Assembly (NCBI GenBank): GCA_963815455.1
Contig: CAWFGO010000001.1
Location: 1,120,001-1,184,000 of the forward strand
Reading direction: 5' to 3'
Source: an uncultured Verrucomicrobiae bacterium
Lineage (GTDB): Bacteria; Verrucomicrobiota; Verrucomicrobiia; Chthoniobacterales; UBA10450
DNA length: 64,000 nucleotides
A program made the position numbers and the translations under genes. Below, piece by piece: positions 1,583 through 41,237 of this stretch. A model generated the notes under the pieces. The model worked only from the letters and a program-made list of their open reading frames with translations, was not told the origin of the DNA and ran no database searches. Within the stretch, counting starts at the first letter, position 1. Every line of letters starts with the position of its first letter.

Positions 1583-4500
1583 TCAGAACGAGCCGTCTTG
1601 GGATTTTTTTGGCGGGAGCTGCGACAAGCGAACAGTGTTTTCGTCAGCCGATGACTGGGGCTGATCTTCTTGTTCCTGTTCCTTTTTCTTTTTCTTGCGC
1701 TTCTCGTCGTCGTTCTCTTCTTCGCCGCCGCCGTAACCGATCACTTCAACAGAGATAATTGACGGAACGTCCTCCTGGGGAGCTGGAGCGGTCTGACCCG
1801 CGAGCTGTTGAGCCGCGGTGCTGGCCGCGCCGGTTGCATTCGAGGCAACGGCCAAGCCACCGAGGTTGGGGGCGGCAACGGCCGGAACGCCCGCGCTGGA
1901 GCCGCCCACCTGAATGTTGCTCGAGTTAAGGACGATCACCGCGGCCAGGTTCAGATTACCCGATACGCGAATGCCCGCATCACCGGCATCGATCGTTCCG
2001 TTCGGCGCGATTAGATCGACATCGGCCGGCGGAACACCGGCCACCGTTTCGAGTACGCCAATGCCGCCGCCGGTGGCGAGTCCGGCCAGATCGGTTTGCA
2101 CGTCAGCGCTCTGCGGATCGATCAGGACGCGCGTGGGCGGGGCCGATTGTACAGTCTTGGAGGAAGCACCGGCCGCGATGTCGCCGAATGAGGACCAGAT
2201 CATTTCGTTCCCGCCGCGCAATGTAAATATACGGGACGTGCCGACGTTGACGCTGTTGTGAGTGAAGATCGAGATGTTGCCGCCGTGTTCGGTGAGAATG
2301 CCTTGATCGAGCGCGTTGCCGCCCACGGTCAATCCAACAGTCAACTGGCCACCTGGAGCGAAGATGTCGATGTTGCCGCCGTTCCTGGTTTTGATTTCGC
2401 GGGACGTTAACGAAATATCGCCGCGCCAGCTTACGCTCTCGGGAAAGAGCGCCGCGATGGCGGCGAATCCGTCGTCGAATCTTCCGAAGTTGAGACTGCC
2501 CGGGTCGTTGCGGTCGCGGCCGGAATTGCGCAGCACCAGGTAGAAAATATCGAGCGCGAGCGCGTCCTGTTGTTCGTCGGGCAATAATTGGAACTGCTTC
2601 CAGATATGGGCATTTGTCGCTCCAGTCAGGCCTAGCAGCTTGCCCAGCTCCGGTAGATAGCGGTCGGCCTGATCGCCGGCCGTATTAGGATTGAGAAATT
2701 GGGATTCGAACGCGGCGAAATCGAGATTGCTCTGCGATAATCCGCTGGAAATTCCAATGCCGGCGCCGGCGATGATGTTGGCTCCTTCAAATGGAAGATA
2801 AGGATTTCGTCCGTTGCCGATACTGACCAAGCCAACCGCGGTGCCATCGGCATTGTTCGGCCCGACGCCCAGGTCGAAATTGCGTCCGGCCAGCACTTCG
2901 ATCGTTCCCGGCCCGCTAATCTGAATATCGCCATCTGCCGGCGGACTATCGGTCAAATTGCCGGGCGCATTCGCCAGCAGGCGCAGCGCGGAACTCGGAT
3001 CGTAGGCGACGAGATCGCGACCAGCGGCGACGAGGCTGATGTCGTCGATGCTGACGTTCTGGATGTAAAACGCGATGTCGGTAATGTCGCGTCCGGCAAC
3101 GATCCGGGCCGCCTTCCCAGTAAACAAAGTGAACCCGGAGATATCGCCGCTGCCGGCGTAAAGATGAATCGGGTCGGGATCGTTTAGGTGAAGCGGTCCG
3201 GGCGCGTGAAGTGCCTGTTTGTTTTGCAGTACACCGGCGGCTCCCTGGGTCGAGCCGGTTTCCGCGAAAAACGCCGAAAGTCCGTTGAGAAAATCGGTCG
3301 TGCTCGACGAATTGAGCGGTCGCGAACTGGGCACCGCAAGCGTACTGCGGTAGGCAAATGGTGTCGTAAGCGCCGGTAGGCGGTTCGGGTCTGCGTCGGA
3401 AAGATTAATTCGGCTCGGAATCCATACCGTATCAGCATTTCCGAACACACCATCGGGCTGAAGTCCGTTTATCCCGCCTCGAGCGACAAGATCGACAGTG
3501 CCAATTGCCGCCGGAAACAGCGTCAGGCCGCCCTGGACATTTAGATCGCCGGCGAAAGCGGTCACGCGCATCGCAGGCGCCAACAGAGACAGGACTGTCG
3601 GAAAAGCGGTAACGTTCGTTTCGTCCAACCGCAGCCACGGCTGAACCCACGAAGGGCGCGCATTGCCGGAAAAAAGTAGTACCCGATCGAACCACGCCTG
3701 CAAAACGGGCAGTATCGAGCCATCATTCAGCGTAACAGTTTGCCGGAGGTTCACATCGCCGGTAAGCGACTCCGCGGTGACTCTGGACGACGCCGCGTAG
3801 GTAGAGAAGTAGGTCTTGTACCAATAGGAATTGTTTATACCGCCAGGCAGAAGAAATGGATTCGCCACCGGACCGAGAAGCAAATCTCCCCCGGCCGCGA
3901 CATCGAAACTTCCCTTGCCCACGAACAATGTCGTCGGAAGCCAGGTTTCCTCTGCCAGGACGCCGCCGATCGGATCGAGATTTCCGAGTGAGGGCGAGCG
4001 GGAAGCATTTGTCCGAATCTCGTTGCCCGCCACGAGCGACCCGTGGCCGCGTTCGACATAATATGCGCCGCCATCGAGGTTGTTGCCGGCGCGGACGATC
4101 ACGTCGCCGCCACCCAGCTCGACCAGGCTAGACGCATTCGGCACGACGCCCGGCATTCGGGCATTGGTCGGCGCGACCGCATCGATATTGCGCACGTCGT
4201 GTCCCGCGGTAAGCGAAACATTCCCTCCGCCCAACGCACCGACGCCCTCAAAAAAATTGCTGAAGTCGATCCACCATGTCGTTGACCCAATGTCGTTGGT
4301 ACCGTTTCCGGTTACCTGTCCAAAAAGGCCCGTGCTTGGATCGACAAACCCGCGCCGGTATAGCCAGTTGGCCGGAAGTTCGCGCGAGGAATCATCCACC
4401 ACTTGCCCGGCGATTTGTGTTTGATGAATGATATCGCCCCGCGCGGCGATGGTGATATTTCCGCCCGCCAAACTGTACTGTGCCGGATACGCGGGGGTCT

Positions 4501-31943: not shown

Positions 31944-32019
31944 GTAGGACATTGCTGCGTGTTGCCTGCTTCGGCAGGCGGGACGCCCGCCGGCCCCACA
32001 GGCAGGATGCCTGTGCTAC
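31944..32019. repeat. GTAG-type REP-like element; its GTAG supplies the sulfurtransferase stop
   Basis: Minus-strand GTAGCACAGGCATCCTGCCTGTGGGGCCGGCGGGCGTCCCGCCTGCC; sibling of 1463-1555. Confidence 0.85.
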
Positions 32020-35128: not shown

Positions 35129-35923
35129 ATGAAGTATCACGTTAGCCTCCTTGGCGCGTTCGCCTTCTCTTGCCTGTCCATCGTTCAACCCGCCCAAGCA
35201 ACCGTGGTACCGTGGGGCTCTCTTACTTGGACTCCTGGTTCGCTCAGCAATTCCTACGATGTCGATCCTGGCAGTGCCGGTAATGACGTGACCGTGACGG
35301 CAACCGGCGATACCGGCCAGTTCGTGCAAGCCTTGGGTAGTGGTCAGCAAACGCCGGCCATTACGTCGGATCTTACCGGTGGCTTCAGTCCGGTTCATCC
35401 GTCACTTCAATTCTCGATGGACCAGACGACCAATCTGCAAAGCATCACCATAACGATAGATTTCTCGAACATGTACGCCACGGGCGTGGCCAATGTTTCC
35501 TTCAACTTGTTCGACATCGATACCCGAAACAGCGGCGGCAACACCTACCAGGATCTGATCAGCAACATCATCGGCACTTCAGCGACCGGCACTTCAATCG
35601 CTCCCACGATTACAGGTGTTGGATCCGGCGTAACCCTCAGCGGTTCGGGCCTGGCTCAGCTTCTCACCGGGAATGCGACGGTCGCGGATAATTCCTCCAA
35701 CGGCAATGCCACGATCACATTCAGCGCCACAAACATTCGCTCGGTCTCATTTACTTACGGCGGGACCCCGCTTTACCCGACTCCCACTTATCAGCACATC
35801 GCGCTCGACAATATTACTTACAGCGTCGTGCCCGAAACCAATCCGGGCTGGGTCTGCGCGGCCGGATGCGGTCTGCTTGCCTTGGGGACGTTGCGGCGCC
35901 GTCTGAGCTGGCACCGGCTGTAA
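35129..35923 (+). CDS. Exported protein with a PEP-CTERM-like sorting signal
   Basis: Signal peptide; S/T/N-rich body; C-terminal VVPETNPG, hydrophobic stretch, RRR. Confidence 0.75.
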   Translation: MKYHVSLLGAFAFSCLSIVQPAQATVVPWGSLTWTPGSLSNSYDVDPGSAGNDVTVTATGDTGQFVQALGSGQQTPAITSDLTGGFSPVHPSLQFSMDQTTNLQSITITIDFSNMYATGVANVSFNLFDIDTRNSGGNTYQDLISNIIGTSATGTSIAPTITGVGSGVTLSGSGLAQLLTGNATVADNSSNGNATITFSATNIRSVSFTYGGTPLYPTPTYQHIALDNITYSVVPETNPGWVCAAGCGLLALGTLRRRLSWHRL

Positions 35924-35995: not shown

Positions 35996-37039
35996 ATGGC
36001 AGTAACGGAAGAACAAATTAAACAGGCGCTCAGCGGAGTGAAGTACCCGGGGTTTAGCCGGGACATTGTTTCATTCGGCCTGGTGAAGGGCGTGAGCATC
36101 GACAACGGCGATGTAAGAGTGCAACTGGCCCTGGCCACGAACGATCCAAACGTCCCCGCAACGATAAAAAACGATGCCGAAAAAGTTTTGCGCGGCATCA
36201 CAGGAGTCCAGGACGCGCGGGTCTTAATAGATATCCACGCGCCCCCGGCCGGCGCGGGTGCGGCTGGGATGGTGACAACGCGAATCCCCGGCATCAAACA
36301 CGTGATCGCAGTGGCCAGCGGCAAGGGCGGCGTCGGCAAATCGACGGTCGCGGCGAATCTGGCGGTCGCGCTTCACGAAAAAAATGCGCGGGTCGGCCTG
36401 TGCGATTGCGACATTTATGGACCGAGCATCTCGCTCATGTTTGGCATCCGGGAGCGCCCAATGGCGACGGAGGAAAACAAAATCGTTCCGATCGAGCAAT
36501 ATGGGCTGCGGCTGATGTCGATGGGTTTTCTGCTCGATGATGCGTCACCCGCGATCTTGCGCGGGCCCATGGTCACCCGTTATACCCAGCAGTTTCTGCG
36601 ACAAGTCGAGTGGGGCGAACTCGATTATCTGGTGCTCGATCTTCCGCCCGGCACCGGCGATATTCAGTTGACTATTGTCCAAACCGTCGCGCTTTCCGGG
36701 GCGGTCATCGTAACTACGCCGCAGGAAGTCGCTCTGATCGACGCGCGCAAGGCGGCCACGATGTTCGAGAAGGTCAACGTCCCGGTCCTTGGTCTCATTG
36801 AAAACATGAGCTACTTCGTCTGCCCGGGAGACGGCAAACGTTACGACATCTTCGGCAGCGGCGGCGGCGAACGCGAAGCGAAGCGGTTGCGGGTCCCGCT
36901 GCTCGGCCAAATCCCAATCGATATTCCCACTCGGGAAGCGGGCGACCGCGGGATGCCGATCGTCGGCGAAGATCGAAAATCGCCTGTGACGGCGGAGTTC
37001 CTCAAGATCGCCCAAGCGCTTCGCGAGAAGCTGGCTTGA
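35996..37039 (+). CDS. mrp: Mrp/ApbC Fe-S cluster carrier ATPase
   Basis: SGKGGVGKST, DIYGPS, DLPPGTGD, ENMSYFVCP. Confidence 0.93.
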   Translation: MAVTEEQIKQALSGVKYPGFSRDIVSFGLVKGVSIDNGDVRVQLALATNDPNVPATIKNDAEKVLRGITGVQDARVLIDIHAPPAGAGAAGMVTTRIPGIKHVIAVASGKGGVGKSTVAANLAVALHEKNARVGLCDCDIYGPSISLMFGIRERPMATEENKIVPIEQYGLRLMSMGFLLDDASPAILRGPMVTRYTQQFLRQVEWGELDYLVLDLPPGTGDIQLTIVQTVALSGAVIVTTPQEVALIDARKAATMFEKVNVPVLGLIENMSYFVCPGDGKRYDIFGSGGGEREAKRLRVPLLGQIPIDIPTREAGDRGMPIVGEDRKSPVTAEFLKIAQALREKLA

Positions 37040-37049
37040 TACAGACCGC

Positions 37050-37123
37050 TGCGGCGTGCGCTGTCCTCAGCGCATCGGCGGAGGGGCACCGCAGGGAATC
37101 CGCTGAGGACAGCGGACGCTACA
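37050..37123. repeat. GTAG-type REP-like inverted pair
   Basis: TGCGGCGTGCGCTGTCCTCAGCGCA and TCCGCTGAGGACAGCGGACGCTACA. Confidence 0.8.
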
Positions 37124-37252
37124 TCCTGGCATTCATCGATAACATGCTGGACGAATGGTAATTGGCCGCAGATCGATACATCCATTTAGATAGGTATGGC
37201 CGATGCTTCGTCAAAAGAGGTGGATACTTTTGATTGACCAATTCTCGTTTTT

Positions 37253-37498
37253 ATGGAAAAGAATTCCTCCATGCCTCCTACTCAAGAGGAGAAGTCCCAG
37301 TTCGTTAAGAACTCGGTGCTTTACAAACAGTTTCTGGCGGAGCGCGAGGAGATCCTGAAGCACAAATGGATCGAGAGCGAAAAGGCCGGTAAAGACATCG
37401 GCTTTGAAAAGGCTTTGCTCGACTGGATCGTGAAACATCGCTCCAGTTGGCGAGACCGGCGAATCAAGGAGGCGCGCACCGAAAAAGCCGCCTCCTAA
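37253..37498 (+). CDS. Small DUF4032-like protein
   Basis: EREEILKHKWIESEKAGKDIGFEKALLDW. Confidence 0.75.
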   Translation: MEKNSSMPPTQEEKSQFVKNSVLYKQFLAEREEILKHKWIESEKAGKDIGFEKALLDWIVKHRSSWRDRRIKEARTEKAAS

Positions 37499-37545
37499 AT
37501 TTTTTGTTCCTTTAACGCGATCCGGTGAGATCGCCAAGGAGCTCA

Positions 37546-38133
37546 ATGAAAGACCGACCAGAAAACTCTGCCTCGTCACGCCGTAACCTGGCGAAGGAGG
37601 ACGCCGTGCCGATCATGGACGCGGCCGCCATTCAACGCGCCCTGCGCCGCGTCGCGCACGAAATTGTCGAGCGCAACCCCGACTTGCGTTCGGTGGTGCT
37701 TGCGGGAATTCCGTCTCGGGGCATTGAGATCGCGCAACGCATCGCCGAATTCATCCACGGGATCGAGAAGATCGACATCGACACCGGCGTAATCGATGTG
37801 GCCATGCACCGCGATGACGTTGGCACCCGATCGGAATTGCCGATTGTGCGTGAATCGAAGCTGCCGCTGCCACTCGAAGGCCGCACCCTGATCATTGTCG
37901 ATGATGTCCTTTTCACCGGCCGGACTGTGCGCGCGGCCATGGACGCGATTAGCTCGTTCGGCCGGCCCGCCCGGATTCAGCTGGCCGTGTTAATCGATCG
38001 CGGTCATCGCGAGCTACCCATCCGCGCCGATTACGTCGGAAAAAATCTACCCACCAGCGCAAACGAGAAAATTCGCGTCCGCCTCGAGCAAACCGACAAC
38101 GCACCGGACACAGTGCATTTGGAGAAGGAATGA
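37546..38133 (+). CDS. pyrR: PyrR / uracil phosphoribosyltransferase
   Basis: IVDDVLFTGRTVRAA; DRGHRELPIRADYVGKN. Confidence 0.93.
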   Translation: MKDRPENSASSRRNLAKEDAVPIMDAAAIQRALRRVAHEIVERNPDLRSVVLAGIPSRGIEIAQRIAEFIHGIEKIDIDTGVIDVAMHRDDVGTRSELPIVRESKLPLPLEGRTLIIVDDVLFTGRTVRAAMDAISSFGRPARIQLAVLIDRGHRELPIRADYVGKNLPTSANEKIRVRLEQTDNAPDTVHLEKE

Positions 38134-38291
38134 ACGCAATGATGCAATTTCTGGGGAGGGCAGGCTGCCAGCCTGCAGCGTTTGGCAGCCTGCCGAACGC
38201 ATCCGCGTGCGATTTATCGTCAATTAAGATCCCAGGTTGGCGGCAAGCTGCCGCCAACTACAGGCTAGCAGCCTGTGCTCCCCAGATATGA
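38130..38291 (+). CDS. Putative 53-aa repeat-encoded bridging mini-ORF
   Basis: ATG overlaps the pyrR TGA; its TGA overlaps the pyrB ATG; open across the whole element. Expression unproven. Confidence 0.5.
38151..38285. repeat. 135-bp inverted-repeat element, copy 1
   Basis: CTGGGGAGGGCAGGCTGCCAGCCTGCAG...CTACAGGCTAGCAGCCTGTGCTCCCCAG. Confidence 0.92.
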
Positions 38292-39217
38292 CTACCCGGT
38301 GGATACGAAAAGATCTTCTCGGGCTGCGCGAACTTTCCGCAAACGAAATCAACTTCATTCTCGAGACAGCCGACGCGTTTAAACAAGTCGGCACCCGCGA
38401 AATCAAGAAAGTTCCGGCGTTGCGCGGCAAGACTTTGGTTAACTTTTTTGTCGAACCAAGTACGCGGACGCGCATTTCTTTCGAACTGGCGGCGCTGCGC
38501 CTGAGCGCGGACGTCATCAATATCTCGGCGGCCACTTCCAGTCTCACCAAGGGCGAAACGCTCAAGGACACGGCGCGAAACCTCGAGGCGCTGCACACCG
38601 ATATCCTGGTACTGCGCCACGGCTCCGCGGGCGCGCCGCAATTTCTGGCAACTCGTCTCAAGACCAGCGTGATCAACGCCGGGGACGGCGCCCACGAGCA
38701 TCCGACCCAGGCATTGCTCGATCTTTACACCATTCGGCAAAAACGAGGGAAAATCGCCGGACTGCATGTCGTTATCATCGGGGACATCCTGTTTAGCCGC
38801 GTGGCACGCTCAAACATTTTCGGGCTGCTCAAACTCGGGGCCCGCGTCACTCTGGTCGGGCCGAGCACTCTGGTACCGCGCGAATTCGAAAAACTTGGCG
38901 TCACCATTTCGCACAACATTGACGACGTCCTGCCCGGCGCCGACGTGGTGAATCTTCTGCGCATTCAGCACGAGCGGCAACGAAAGGAATATTTTCCCGG
39001 CATCGGCGAATACCGGAGCCTTTTTGGACTAACAAAAGACCGCGCGAAAGTCCTAAAGCCGGACTGCTTGATCATGCACCCCGGGCCGATCAATCGCGGC
39101 GTCGAGATCGACAGCGATGTCGCCGACGGCCCGCAAAGCGTCATTCTCGATCAGGTCACCAATGGCCTCGCCGTGCGCATGGCCGTTCTTTATTTGTGCG
39201 GAGGGATCGCCACGTGA
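38288..39217 (+). CDS. pyrB: Aspartate carbamoyltransferase catalytic subunit
   Basis: [33 protein letters not shown]. Confidence 0.96.
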
Positions 39218-39381
39218 GCGCGCCGCGGATCGTTCTCTCGCTGGGGAGCGCAGGCTGCGAGCCTGCAGCGTTTGGCAGCTTACCAAACGCATTTGGGCGC
39301 GAGCGAGCGCAGAAAAGACGAAGATGTTCGCGGCAGGCTGCCGCGAACTACAGGCTAGCAGCCTGTGCTCCCCAGACATGA
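39214..39381 (+). CDS. Putative 55-aa repeat-encoded bridging mini-ORF
   Basis: GTG overlaps the pyrB TGA; its TGA overlaps the pyrC ATG. Expression unproven. Confidence 0.5.
39241..39375. repeat. 135-bp inverted-repeat element, copy 2
   Basis: CTGGGGAGCGCAGGCTGCGAGCCTGCAG...CTACAGGCTAGCAGCCTGTGCTCCCCAG. Confidence 0.92.
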
Positions 39382-40661
39382 CGACCACGATCATTCGTAA
39401 CGGCCGCATCATCGATCCCGCGAACAAACGGGATGAAGTTGCCGATCTTGCAATTGTCGACGGGCGCATCGTCGACGTCTCTCAACTCTCAACCCTCAAC
39501 TCTCAACCCGAAGAGATTGACGCCACCAATCTCATCGTCTCCCCCGGGTTGATCGACATGCACGTGCATCTACGGGAACCGGGATTTTCACATAAGGAAA
39601 CCATTGGCTCCGGCGCGCGCGCCGCAGCAGCCGGCGGGTTTACCACGATTGTCTGCATGCCGAACACGTCGCCGGCGGCGGACAACCCGAGCACAATTGC
39701 CTGGATCAAGGATCGCGCTGCGGAAACGGCATGCGTGAATTTATTGCCGGCGGGAGCGATTTCAAAAAACCTCGCTGGCGAAGAACTGGCCCCGATCGGT
39801 GCGCTGGCGCGCTCCGGCGTGGTGGCAATCACCGACGATGGTCATTGCATCCAAAATCCGGAATTGATGCGACGCGCAGTCGAGTATGCGCGCATGGTTG
39901 GTCTGCCAGTGCTGGATCATTGCCAGGATTACAATCTCGTCGGCAACGGTGTGGTAAACGAAGGTTACTGGAGCACGCTGCTCGGTTTGCCAGGCTGGCC
40001 GGCAGCGGGCGAGGAAACAATCGTGACGCGCAACATTCTGCTGGCAGAAGCGTGCGATCATCACATTCATTGCCAGCACATCAGCGCGGCGGGCAGTGTG
40101 CGTTTGATTCGCGAGGCGAGGGCGCGTGGCGTCAAGATCAGCGGCGAAGTTTGCCCGCATCACATCGCGCTGACCGACAAAGCGATCGAAAACTTTGACG
40201 CGAATTACAAGACGAACCCGCCGTTGCGATCGCAAGCCGATGTCGATGCGATTCTCGAAGGAATCGCCGACGACACGTTGTCGATCTTATGTTCCGATCA
40301 CGCGCCCCACGCGGGCTTCGAGAAAGAAGTGGAGTTCGATGCGGCCCCATTCGGCATCGTCGGACTCGAAACCGAGCTGGGACTATTCATCGATTTGCTC
40401 GTGCACAAACATCGCAAGATCGACATCGGCCGCTTGATCGAGATGTACACCATCGAGCCGGCCAAGTTGCTAAAAATCGAGGCCGGGACGCTGTCGATTG
40501 GCGCACGGGCCGATGTCACATTGATCGATCCCGATCTGGAATGGACGGTCCGGATCGACAAGTTCGAATCAGCCTCGCGCAATTCACCCTTCGATGGGTG
40601 GAAACTAAAAGGTCGCGCGGTGCGGACAATTGTGGGCGGAGAGACGGTCTGGAAATTGTAG
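39378..40661 (+). CDS. pyrC: Dihydroorotase
   Basis: PGLIDMHVHLREPG, CMPNT, KTNPPLR, SDHAPH, RNSPF. Confidence 0.95.
   Translation: MTTTIIRNGRIIDPANKRDEVADLAIVDGRIVDVSQLSTLNSQPEEIDATNLIVSPGLIDMHVHLREPGFSHKETIGSGARAAAAGGFTTIVCMPNTSPAADNPSTIAWIKDRAAETACVNLLPAGAISKNLAGEELAPIGALARSGVVAITDDGHCIQNPELMRRAVEYARMVGLPVLDHCQDYNLVGNGVVNEGYWSTLLGLPGWPAAGEETIVTRNILLAEACDHHIHCQHISAAGSVRLIREARARGVKISGEVCPHHIALTDKAIENFDANYKTNPPLRSQADVDAILEGIADDTLSILCSDHAPHAGFEKEVEFDAAPFGIVGLETELGLFIDLLVHKHRKIDIGRLIEMYTIEPAKLLKIEAGTLSIGARADVTLIDPDLEWTVRIDKFESASRNSPFDGWKLKGRAVRTIVGGETVWKL
39480..39507 (+). repeat. 4 x 7-bp tandem repeat (TCTCAAC) within pyrC
   Basis: tctcaac tctcaac cctcaac tctcaac, encoding SQLSTLNSQP. Confidence 0.85.
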
Positions 40662-40774
40662 CGGCGGTCTCTGACCGTCGGTCATTCTGAGCCGGAGCGT
40701 AGCGGAGTCGAAGAATCCCGAGATGATAGCTTAAAGTGTGCGCCACGGGATCCCTCGACTCCGCTCGGGATGAC
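40658..40774. repeat. GTAG hairpin supplying the pyrC stop, abutting a GTCAT...ATGAC palindromic element
   Basis: GTAG-CGGCGGTC-TCT-GACCGTCG, then 40681-40774 related to 747-829. Confidence 0.85.
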
Positions 40775-40787
40775 GAGGCGAACGAAA

Positions 40788-41237
40788 CTACCCGGTGAAT
40801 CCGCCGTGGATATAACTTTCCAGGTGGGCGATGGCCGCGCTTTGGCAGGAAATCACGTGCTTCACCAAATCGCCGATCGAAATTACGCCAACGACTCGAT
40901 CGCCATCGAGCACCGGTAAATGGCGAATGTGTCTGTCGGTCATGAGCCGGAGACATTCATCTACGCCTTCATTCGGATGGGTCGTGAAGACATCAGTCGA
41001 CATGATCTCGGCAACGTGCGTTTCGCGTGAGCGTTTTCCTCGCAAAATCACTTTCCGCGTGTAATCGCGCTCGGAAATGATCCCAACCAATCGTTCGCCT
41101 TCCATCACCAGAAGCGCGCCGACATTCCGGCCGTCCATCATCTCGATCGCTTCGAGCACAGTCGAATCAGGCGAGATCGAAAAAACGTTGCCGTCTTTTT
41201 GATTCAAAATCCCGCCGATATGTCCGCTTACGTCCAT
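40788..41237 (-). CDS. CBS domain pair protein
   Basis: VGALLV, GIISERDY, IRHLPV, SIGDLVK. Confidence 0.92.
   Translation of the reverse strand: MDVSGHIGGILNQKDGNVFSISPDSTVLEAIEMMDGRNVGALLVMEGERLVGIISERDYTRKVILRGKRSRETHVAEIMSTDVFTTHPNEGVDECLRLMTDRHIRHLPVLDGDRVVGVISIGDLVKHVISCQSAAIAHLESYIHGGFTG

Follow-up and report, generated by a model that had tools for sequence, protein, structure and literature searches.

The closest described counterpart of the locus reported here is the MIRU of mycobacteria (Supply et al. 1997), which in the accessible portions of PMC12548453 and PMC3184786 is summarised as a repeat whose insertions are at start codons and whose ORF has -4 coupling. These portions depict a small junction repeat with tetranucleotide repeats on either side, whose short ORF overlaps both neighbours at -4 and forms part of the element, and in which coupling is presumed to be kept. 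A second counterpart is the REP/REPIN element with its RAYT transposase, which according to the accessible text of PMC3733652, PMC6006769 and PMC8266576 consists of palindromic halves inverted about a spacer that varies. Its copies number in the dozens, most of them between genes and some in frame within genes, a tetranucleotide is conserved at the foot, and the HUH/Y1 transposase has the same halves on its flanks. REP dimers, in-frame insertions and an occurrence in Verrucomicrobia (GTAG repeats, Opitutus terrae) are described in the parts of PMC3733652 and PMC6006769 available, the corresponding part of PMC8266576 has RAYTs cutting at dinucleotides on either side of the REP, and short ORFs over REPs are considered plausibly all spurious in the available part of PMC3733652. 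A third is the coupled uORF or bicistronic design, in which, going by excerpts of PMC10666635 and PMC12548453, a short ORF delivers the ribosome to a start hidden by structure; in the excerpted reporter tests coupling collapses at about 20 nt spacing, and overlaps or very short gaps are needed (PMC10666635). Literature searches, run over an incomplete body of papers with most subscription journals outside it, returned no account of ORFs that bridge REP/REPIN elements, of selection on such ORFs, or of RAYT cassettes in housekeeping genes.

The locus lies in the window, a stretch of 64,000 nucleotides from a 3.6 Mb Chthoniobacterales genome (G000), in which pyrR, pyrB and pyrC follow one another on the plus strand. 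The pyrR gene (37606-38133; NF003549, 226.9 bits, cut-off 138) is our own gene call with an uncertain start between 37525 and about 37616, and its stop is the TGA within ATGA at 38130-38133. It is followed by pyrB, the aspartate carbamoyltransferase catalytic subunit (38288-39217; NF002032, 400.3 bits, cut-off 263), and by pyrC of the dihydroorotase family (39378-40661; TIGR00857, 407.7 bits, cut-off 279). Both junctions are filled by an inverted doublet of a palindromic repeat. The first (38151-38285, no strand assigned) is composed of a spacer and two inverted halves of ~48 nt each, and the second (39241-39375) of a left half on the minus strand (39241-39286) and a right half on the plus strand (39329-39377), with profile matches of 40.3 and 52.7 bits and with GGAG at both outer feet. 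Each doublet is 135 bp long, as the sequence-only reading had noticed, they agree without gaps at 106/135 positions, and both fold far more strongly than shuffled sequences (z about -8, 0/200 shuffles).

Each doublet is crossed on the plus strand by a short ORF, here called the bridge. The two are unequal in length. The first bridge (38130-38291, 53 codons) overlaps the pyrR stop and the pyrB start. The second (39214-39381, 55 codons) begins with the GTG of GTGA at 39214-39217, over the pyrB stop, and ends with the TGA of ATGA at 39378-39381, over the pyrC ATG; the earlier description of this double overlap was correct. A purine-rich, Shine-Dalgarno-like site at the pyrR 3' end (38121-38128, plus strand; duplex energy with the 16S tail -6.4) precedes the first bridge start, and a GGAGG Shine-Dalgarno site within the pyrB 3' end (39200-39204, plus strand; -10.0 kcal/mol), the presumptive ancestral ribosome-binding site of pyrC, now precedes the second. 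The pyrC start itself (39378) lies 2 nt behind the stem without a Shine-Dalgarno site (-1.4), with positions -12 to -3 all paired in the predicted fold. This genome has the usual 16S tail, and a Shine-Dalgarno energy of -5 or stronger is reached by only 16% of its 2117 called genes. A likeness between the two gene starts had also been remarked on; it is present and needs no special cause, because most element-free relatives begin both genes with RTGA and CCCCAGA(C/T) is the end of the repeat family itself.

A search of the genome with a one-arm profile returned 90 halves, which merge into 53 sites and include 37 inverted doublets. Their lengths range from 104 to 154 bp and are spread evenly modulo 3 (13/14/10); four of the 37 measure 135 bp, so the equal length of the pyr copies, once offered as evidence, is unremarkable. 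By our own gene calls, in which starts are uncertain, 34 doublets lie between called genes (20 co-oriented, 10 convergent and 4 divergent pairs) and 3 inside ORFs. Doublets in frame within genes were seen twice in DNA polymerase III alpha (L233:630-763 and 2993-3100) and once in metH (L048:4123-4274). The two pyr copies are each other's best match, with a score (81.5) typical of best pairs in the family. An exact double overlap occurs in only 2 of the 20 co-oriented doublets, which are the pyr copies themselves, and thus the bridge is not a property of the element; two weaker relatives at pheS-pheT and rplN-rplX also show an exact double overlap. Direct repeats are absent around the doublets (longest between 30-nt flanks 4.78 nt, compared with 4.67 nt in mismatched pairs), and a MITE was rejected for this lack of a target-site duplication.

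Among the 16 Y1-transposase matches in the genome, one RAYT-type gene (C5:91168-91641) is flanked on both sides by the same repeat halves, which is the partner that the sequence-only reading had proposed to look for. It has the HUH motif and the tyrosine, scores above the cut-off of PF01797 and just below that of NF047646 (77.7 bits, cut-off 80), and sits in frame within recG, as a REP-RAYT-REP cassette at L047:1576-2210 (C5:91075-91709). On these sequence features the pyr element is best classed as REP/REPIN-like with a RAYT partner, and the suggestion of an undescribed element class is not supported; we infer that a RAYT moved it, and cutting at dinucleotides could give its variable flanks. 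Two points set it apart from the described families. The foot, for which GTAG or GTGG would be expected, is mostly GGAG (74 of the 82 halves with a score of at least 25 bits, GTAG in 1), a tetranucleotide not found in the main text of PMC3733652, whose supplements may list this family; the other point is the residence of the partner RAYT in frame inside recG. Several RAYT genes are present in the genome, all flanked by palindromes of their own, and such cassettes occur in all four of recG, alaS, metH and carB. The best-scoring 30 RAYT loci fetched in the family (one of them, L423, from an unpublished genome) all lie in frame inside recG (13), alaS (7), metH (6) or carB (4), and in most of them the HUH and tyrosine motifs are intact and REP feet are present; GTAG versions of the foot flank related RAYTs in 6 of the 30.

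The pyr junctions were then compared across family genomes. Out of 301 genomes searched, 268 had a match and 123 were examined, namely 23 (that of the window included) and 100 picked among the 150 matches listed, a sample that leans to closer relatives. The nearest named pyrB relatives belong to Chthoniobacterales, and more distant named loci were kept out of all counts. The scored junctions number 123 for pyrB-pyrC and 114 for pyrR-pyrB. The commonest state at either is a plain -4 overlap of the RTGA type (76/123 and 52/114, respectively), and both junctions are empty in a genome of the same genus (G001). A search of sequencing runs listed no RNA run with the locus; four soil DNA runs from one study contain relatives only, and the contigs of these also run past both inserts, four letters being shared at the first junction.

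Where an insert of at least 60 nt is present (n = 67), the junction is an exact bridge in 61 cases, meaning that the former overlapping start opens a frame which runs uninterrupted to a stop that shares bases with the downstream ATG, and a near bridge in 5; in the remaining one, an ATG 13 nt before the end of the stop reads to the overlap. Three of the 67 exceed 300 nt and look like real genes: the pyrB-pyrC gaps in L033, L203 and L213 (430-852 nt) hold whole genes that overlap both neighbours, two of them exactly. Restricted to 60-300 nt, 59 of 64 inserts (92%) are exact bridges, or 57/62 without the genome of the window. Unpublished genomes (G008, G015 and G003) supply one exact bridge (L035) and the empty junctions L021, twice, and L038; when they are omitted the count is 58/63.

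That such bridges are a by-product, with RTGA motifs inherited or common and GC-rich repeats so poor in stops that a frame is open by chance, is very unlikely and already contradicted for the pyr junctions. It is true that 46% of unconstrained insert frames are open (82 of 177 minus-strand frames) and that most repeat-filled gaps in the genome of the window do not bridge. However, one frame in three multiplied by this fraction gives a chance expectation of only about 0.15, far below the 92% seen, and the excess holds when inserts are counted by cluster (at 70% identity all members are exact in 31/36 clusters, p about 1e-20; at 60% identity in 9/12, p about 7e-6). At rplT-pheS, a control junction that never overlaps, 0 of 28 inserts are exact or near bridges.

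The other two plus-strand frames are open in 21/59 and 19/59 exact inserts, and the latter is the frame of the downstream gene. This count bears on whether PyrC starts upstream, at 39117 or at an in-frame ATG in the doublet spacer (39324), and carries residues encoded by the element. The pyrC frame is indeed open as far as 39117, as had been pointed out, and copies of the repeat family do lie in frame within other genes. Such a start is nevertheless highly improbable: the downstream frame is open no more often than by chance, the NCBIfam family models for pyrC begin at 39378 (aligning from residue 1-5), and nothing close to 39324 resembles a Shine-Dalgarno site (-1.1, with the scored position off by one base).

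The inserts are also diverse. Only 13 of the 64 score on the repeat profile of the window's genome, the exact ones have 16 different lengths at each junction, and the filled state is scattered over a FastTree phylogeny of three genes with at least 20 and 26 changes, in which gain and loss are not distinguishable. L149 and L175, with 98.5-99.4% identical pyrB and pyrR, have unrelated inserts of 172 and 112 nt that are both exact bridges. Of 31 gaps measuring 4-59 nt, in some of which repeat remnants can be seen, 29 remain coupled to the -4 start, either by tiny bridges or by in-frame extensions. Relics of 16-17 nt at pyrR-pyrB in L141, L164, L028 and L227 keep one repeat end, with a 7-codon bridge or an in-frame extension.

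A selective requirement for the double overlap at the pyr junctions is thereby strongly supported at the sequence level, on the evidence of the relatives and not of the two copies from which selection or junction targeting had been argued before. The targeting half of that argument is unsupported, as copies of the family occur in all gene orientations and inside genes, and unrelated repeat families bridge the same junctions. The earlier caveat that other copies might have other frame and overlap relationships describes the element family well, with its 18 co-oriented doublets lacking an exact bridge, and does not describe the pyr junctions of relatives.

A related possibility is that the geometry comes from the mechanism of insertion or exchange, in that a unit with RTGA ends and an open frame inserts at starts, or is copied between them, as proposed for MIRUs, with little selection afterwards. 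RTGA does flank filled inserts on both sides, the two pyr copies in the window match each other best, and junction alleles seem to move as short patches. In L177 and L157, an empty/filled pair with 99% identical pyrB and pyrC, mostly synonymous changes are found over about 10 nt before and about 25 nt after the junction; this suggests short-patch recombination or local mutagenesis, and an exchange of whole junction alleles. Such exchange may mean fewer independent insertion events. We nonetheless regard this origin of the geometry as quite unlikely, because the exact bridge is confined to so few co-oriented doublets of evenly spread length without flanking direct repeats, the repeat core contains neither the bridge start nor the bridge stop, the same frame is shared throughout by unrelated families and many lengths, and collapsed relics keep the coupled frame. 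The left flank shows a slight excess of matches to the first codons of the gene, within the first 6 nt only (2.2-2.4 of 6) and none beyond. The reading that we prefer, a ribosome relay kept by selection, does not account for the second RTGA or for the ~20-nt left flank.

Judged by this analogy, the pyr locus would work like a MIRU site without being one, its ORF built from the host start, Shine-Dalgarno site and stop around a REP doublet. On the two sides of the insert, the copies have ATGA/ATGA (first) and GTGA/ATGA (pyrB-pyrC), and direct repeats are generally absent around the family. The MIRU ORF is described, in the sections of the sources available, as part of its element, whereas here start, Shine-Dalgarno site and stop lie outside the core and the ORF does not travel with the repeat; at the pyr junctions many unrelated families converge on the bridge. 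The host is a member of Chthoniobacterales and not a mycobacterium, and the repeat has a RAYT partner. The two are set apart by description, not by sequence comparison. With regard to the view in the consulted part of PMC3733652, a subset of REP-spanning ORFs here appears to be under frame constraint.

What is conserved in the bridges is the frame and not the peptide, which looks neutral. In six genomes with a common 175-nt insert, dN/dS is 1.04 for the bridge and 0.04 for pyrB, and the changes in the bridge are even over codon positions; six single pairs, which are not independent, give 0.68-2.2. Since dN/dS is about 1 and the changes are so distributed, it is the frame that appears to matter. 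This bears on whether the insert encodes a functional small protein or is an attenuator controlled by PyrR, readings to which we give almost no credence. Bacillus pyr operons have intercistronic attenuators, and the insert does lie in a pyr operon with pyrR. However, no Rfam match was obtained over 36900-41000 at E up to 1, promoter and terminator scans both stayed at chance level with no terminator-like site behind the hairpin, neither bridge peptide has an NCBIfam or Pfam match, and the insert is missing in most relatives and unrelated in the rest.

The positions of ribosome-binding site and stem also follow a pattern. A Shine-Dalgarno site of -5 or stronger at the pyrB 3' end is found at 74/76 empty and 31/31 exact filled pyrB-pyrC junctions. 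In the filled ones its median is -9.5 before the bridge start and -1.8 at the pyrC start, where only 7 of 31 reach -5; the contrast at pyrR-pyrB is weaker (-3.6 and -1.8). In the 54 of 59 inserts with a scorable stem, the median distance from the bridge start to the stem is 22 nt, and that from the stem end to the downstream ATG is 4.5 nt. Only 6 of these 54 stems start within 12 nt, compared with 11 of 25 at non-start stops beside doublets in the window's genome. The computed cost of opening the pyrC start region, in short contexts, is 26.4 kcal/mol when filled and 11.7 kcal/mol when empty. The downstream start at pyrB-pyrC is ATG in 32/34 filled and 39/76 empty junctions, and GC3 behind filled starts is not lower. 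This pattern would fit a ribosome for which the old start must be open for landing and the new one is accessible only by translation through the stem.

On this evidence we think it likely that a junk ORF relays ribosomes across the hairpin and that selection keeps the translational coupling. A RAYT-associated REP doublet would have arrived at the pyrB/pyrC stop-start overlap. The 3' end of pyrB would have been left as it was, including the Shine-Dalgarno site and the former overlapping start in GTGA, and the N-terminus of pyrC would have been kept after a second ATGA, which lacks a Shine-Dalgarno site and is placed at the base of a highly stable stem. The junk 55-codon frame, whose peptide is presumably functionless, would then open at the old GTG. 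Ribosomes that finish pyrB, or bind at the old site, would translate through and melt the hairpin, terminate at the TGA within the second ATGA and initiate again on pyrC. Junction alleles that are out of frame or bear a stop would be purged by selection, so that surviving inserts are nearly all bridges, whatever their repeat family. Compared with coupled uORFs and bicistronic designs, the bridge appears to be a relic of the gene's own old start, it lies between two genes, it is coupled at both ends, and it would have arisen or been rebuilt many times.

Alternatively, what matters may be the cover that ribosomes give to the insert, against Rho-dependent polarity or cleavage at the hairpin, while a new ribosome initiates pyrC on the unfolded RNA. 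The unfolding model of coupling is an accepted alternative in the accessible part of PMC12548453. Two rho-like genes are present in the genome of the window (C1:648413-649642 and C1:1665898-1667001; 500.5 and 455.7 bits, just under the cut-off of 509), and at junctions other than those in the pyr operon several frames pass the hairpin and stop 10-25 nt before the start. We hold this to be unlikely, as cover alone would not need the single-base precision with which the stop falls on the downstream ATG, and a fresh initiation would have to occur on a pyrC without its own Shine-Dalgarno site.

There is nothing unusual in the element itself; what stands out is the comparative evidence, in which many different inserts at the same junctions have a base-exact frame and a neutral peptide. 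Dozens of inserts at two junctions with a drifting peptide argue that the overlap itself is selected. They amount to a natural experiment, run many times over, on whether coupling is what preserves -4 overlaps and whether a long gap can be crossed by a scanning or restarting ribosome, and the inserts are ready-made constructs for distinguishing reinitiation from RNA unfolding. They also mark a class of spurious-looking short ORFs that may be needed, and advise caution against calls of extended N-termini at such sites.

Beyond the pyr operon, gaps of 50-320 nt at 13 junctions were scored in 30 family genomes, in operons chosen for bridges or near bridges in the window's genome; a frame-shifted null used at these extra junctions is conditional on the observed frame and is not the main test. 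Five junctions that are mostly -4 (rplN-X, nuoH-J, nuoJ-K, nuoK-L and pheS-T) have 43 inserts, with 23 exact, 8 near, 1 in frame and 11 none. At ftsA-Z, where short forms are mostly 12-49 nt, 7 are exact, 4 near and 5 none. The other junctions have few exact bridges or none: nuoA-B 0 exact and 2 near of 9, nuoB-C 1 exact and 5 near of 12, rplX-E 1 near of 4, rplP-rpmC 4 near of 5, and rplE-rpsH and rpsH-rplF 0/1 each. Across the whole genome of the window, by our own gene calls, exact bridges account for 10/67 of the gaps of 60-400 nt that contain repeats behind ATGA or GTGA stops and for 11/244 behind TAA, TAG or CTGA (p 0.005), with 0/30 behind TTGA. The genes ftsA (L241) and ftsW (L247) appear split in this genome, probably by assembly frameshifts, which adds noise to these counts. 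The genome-wide effect is modest, and the bridge rule is strong at some junctions, at pyr most of all, and absent at many.

A wider reading, which we find doubtful though conceivable, is that in this family of soil bacteria stop-start overlaps serve as hot spots for RAYT-linked hairpins, which arrive, are lost and displace one another there and persist only as relays. A filled junction would then be a tighter valve than a plain overlap, because without a ribosome passing through it the hairpin keeps the downstream start closed, and it may be favoured and not only tolerated. If so, junk repeats would have a repeatable route to becoming new small ORFs and elements of translational control, with their transposase residing in frame inside recG, metH, alaS and carB. 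Palindromic repeats of other families are also found in the window, at 747-829, 1449-1555, 31973-32019, 37040-37125 and 40660-40775. Upstream of the pyr genes, the window encodes a secreted-looking protein (35129-35923) with a C-terminal VPE motif, a hydrophobic stretch and basic residues, an end that we take to resemble a PEP-CTERM sorting signal.
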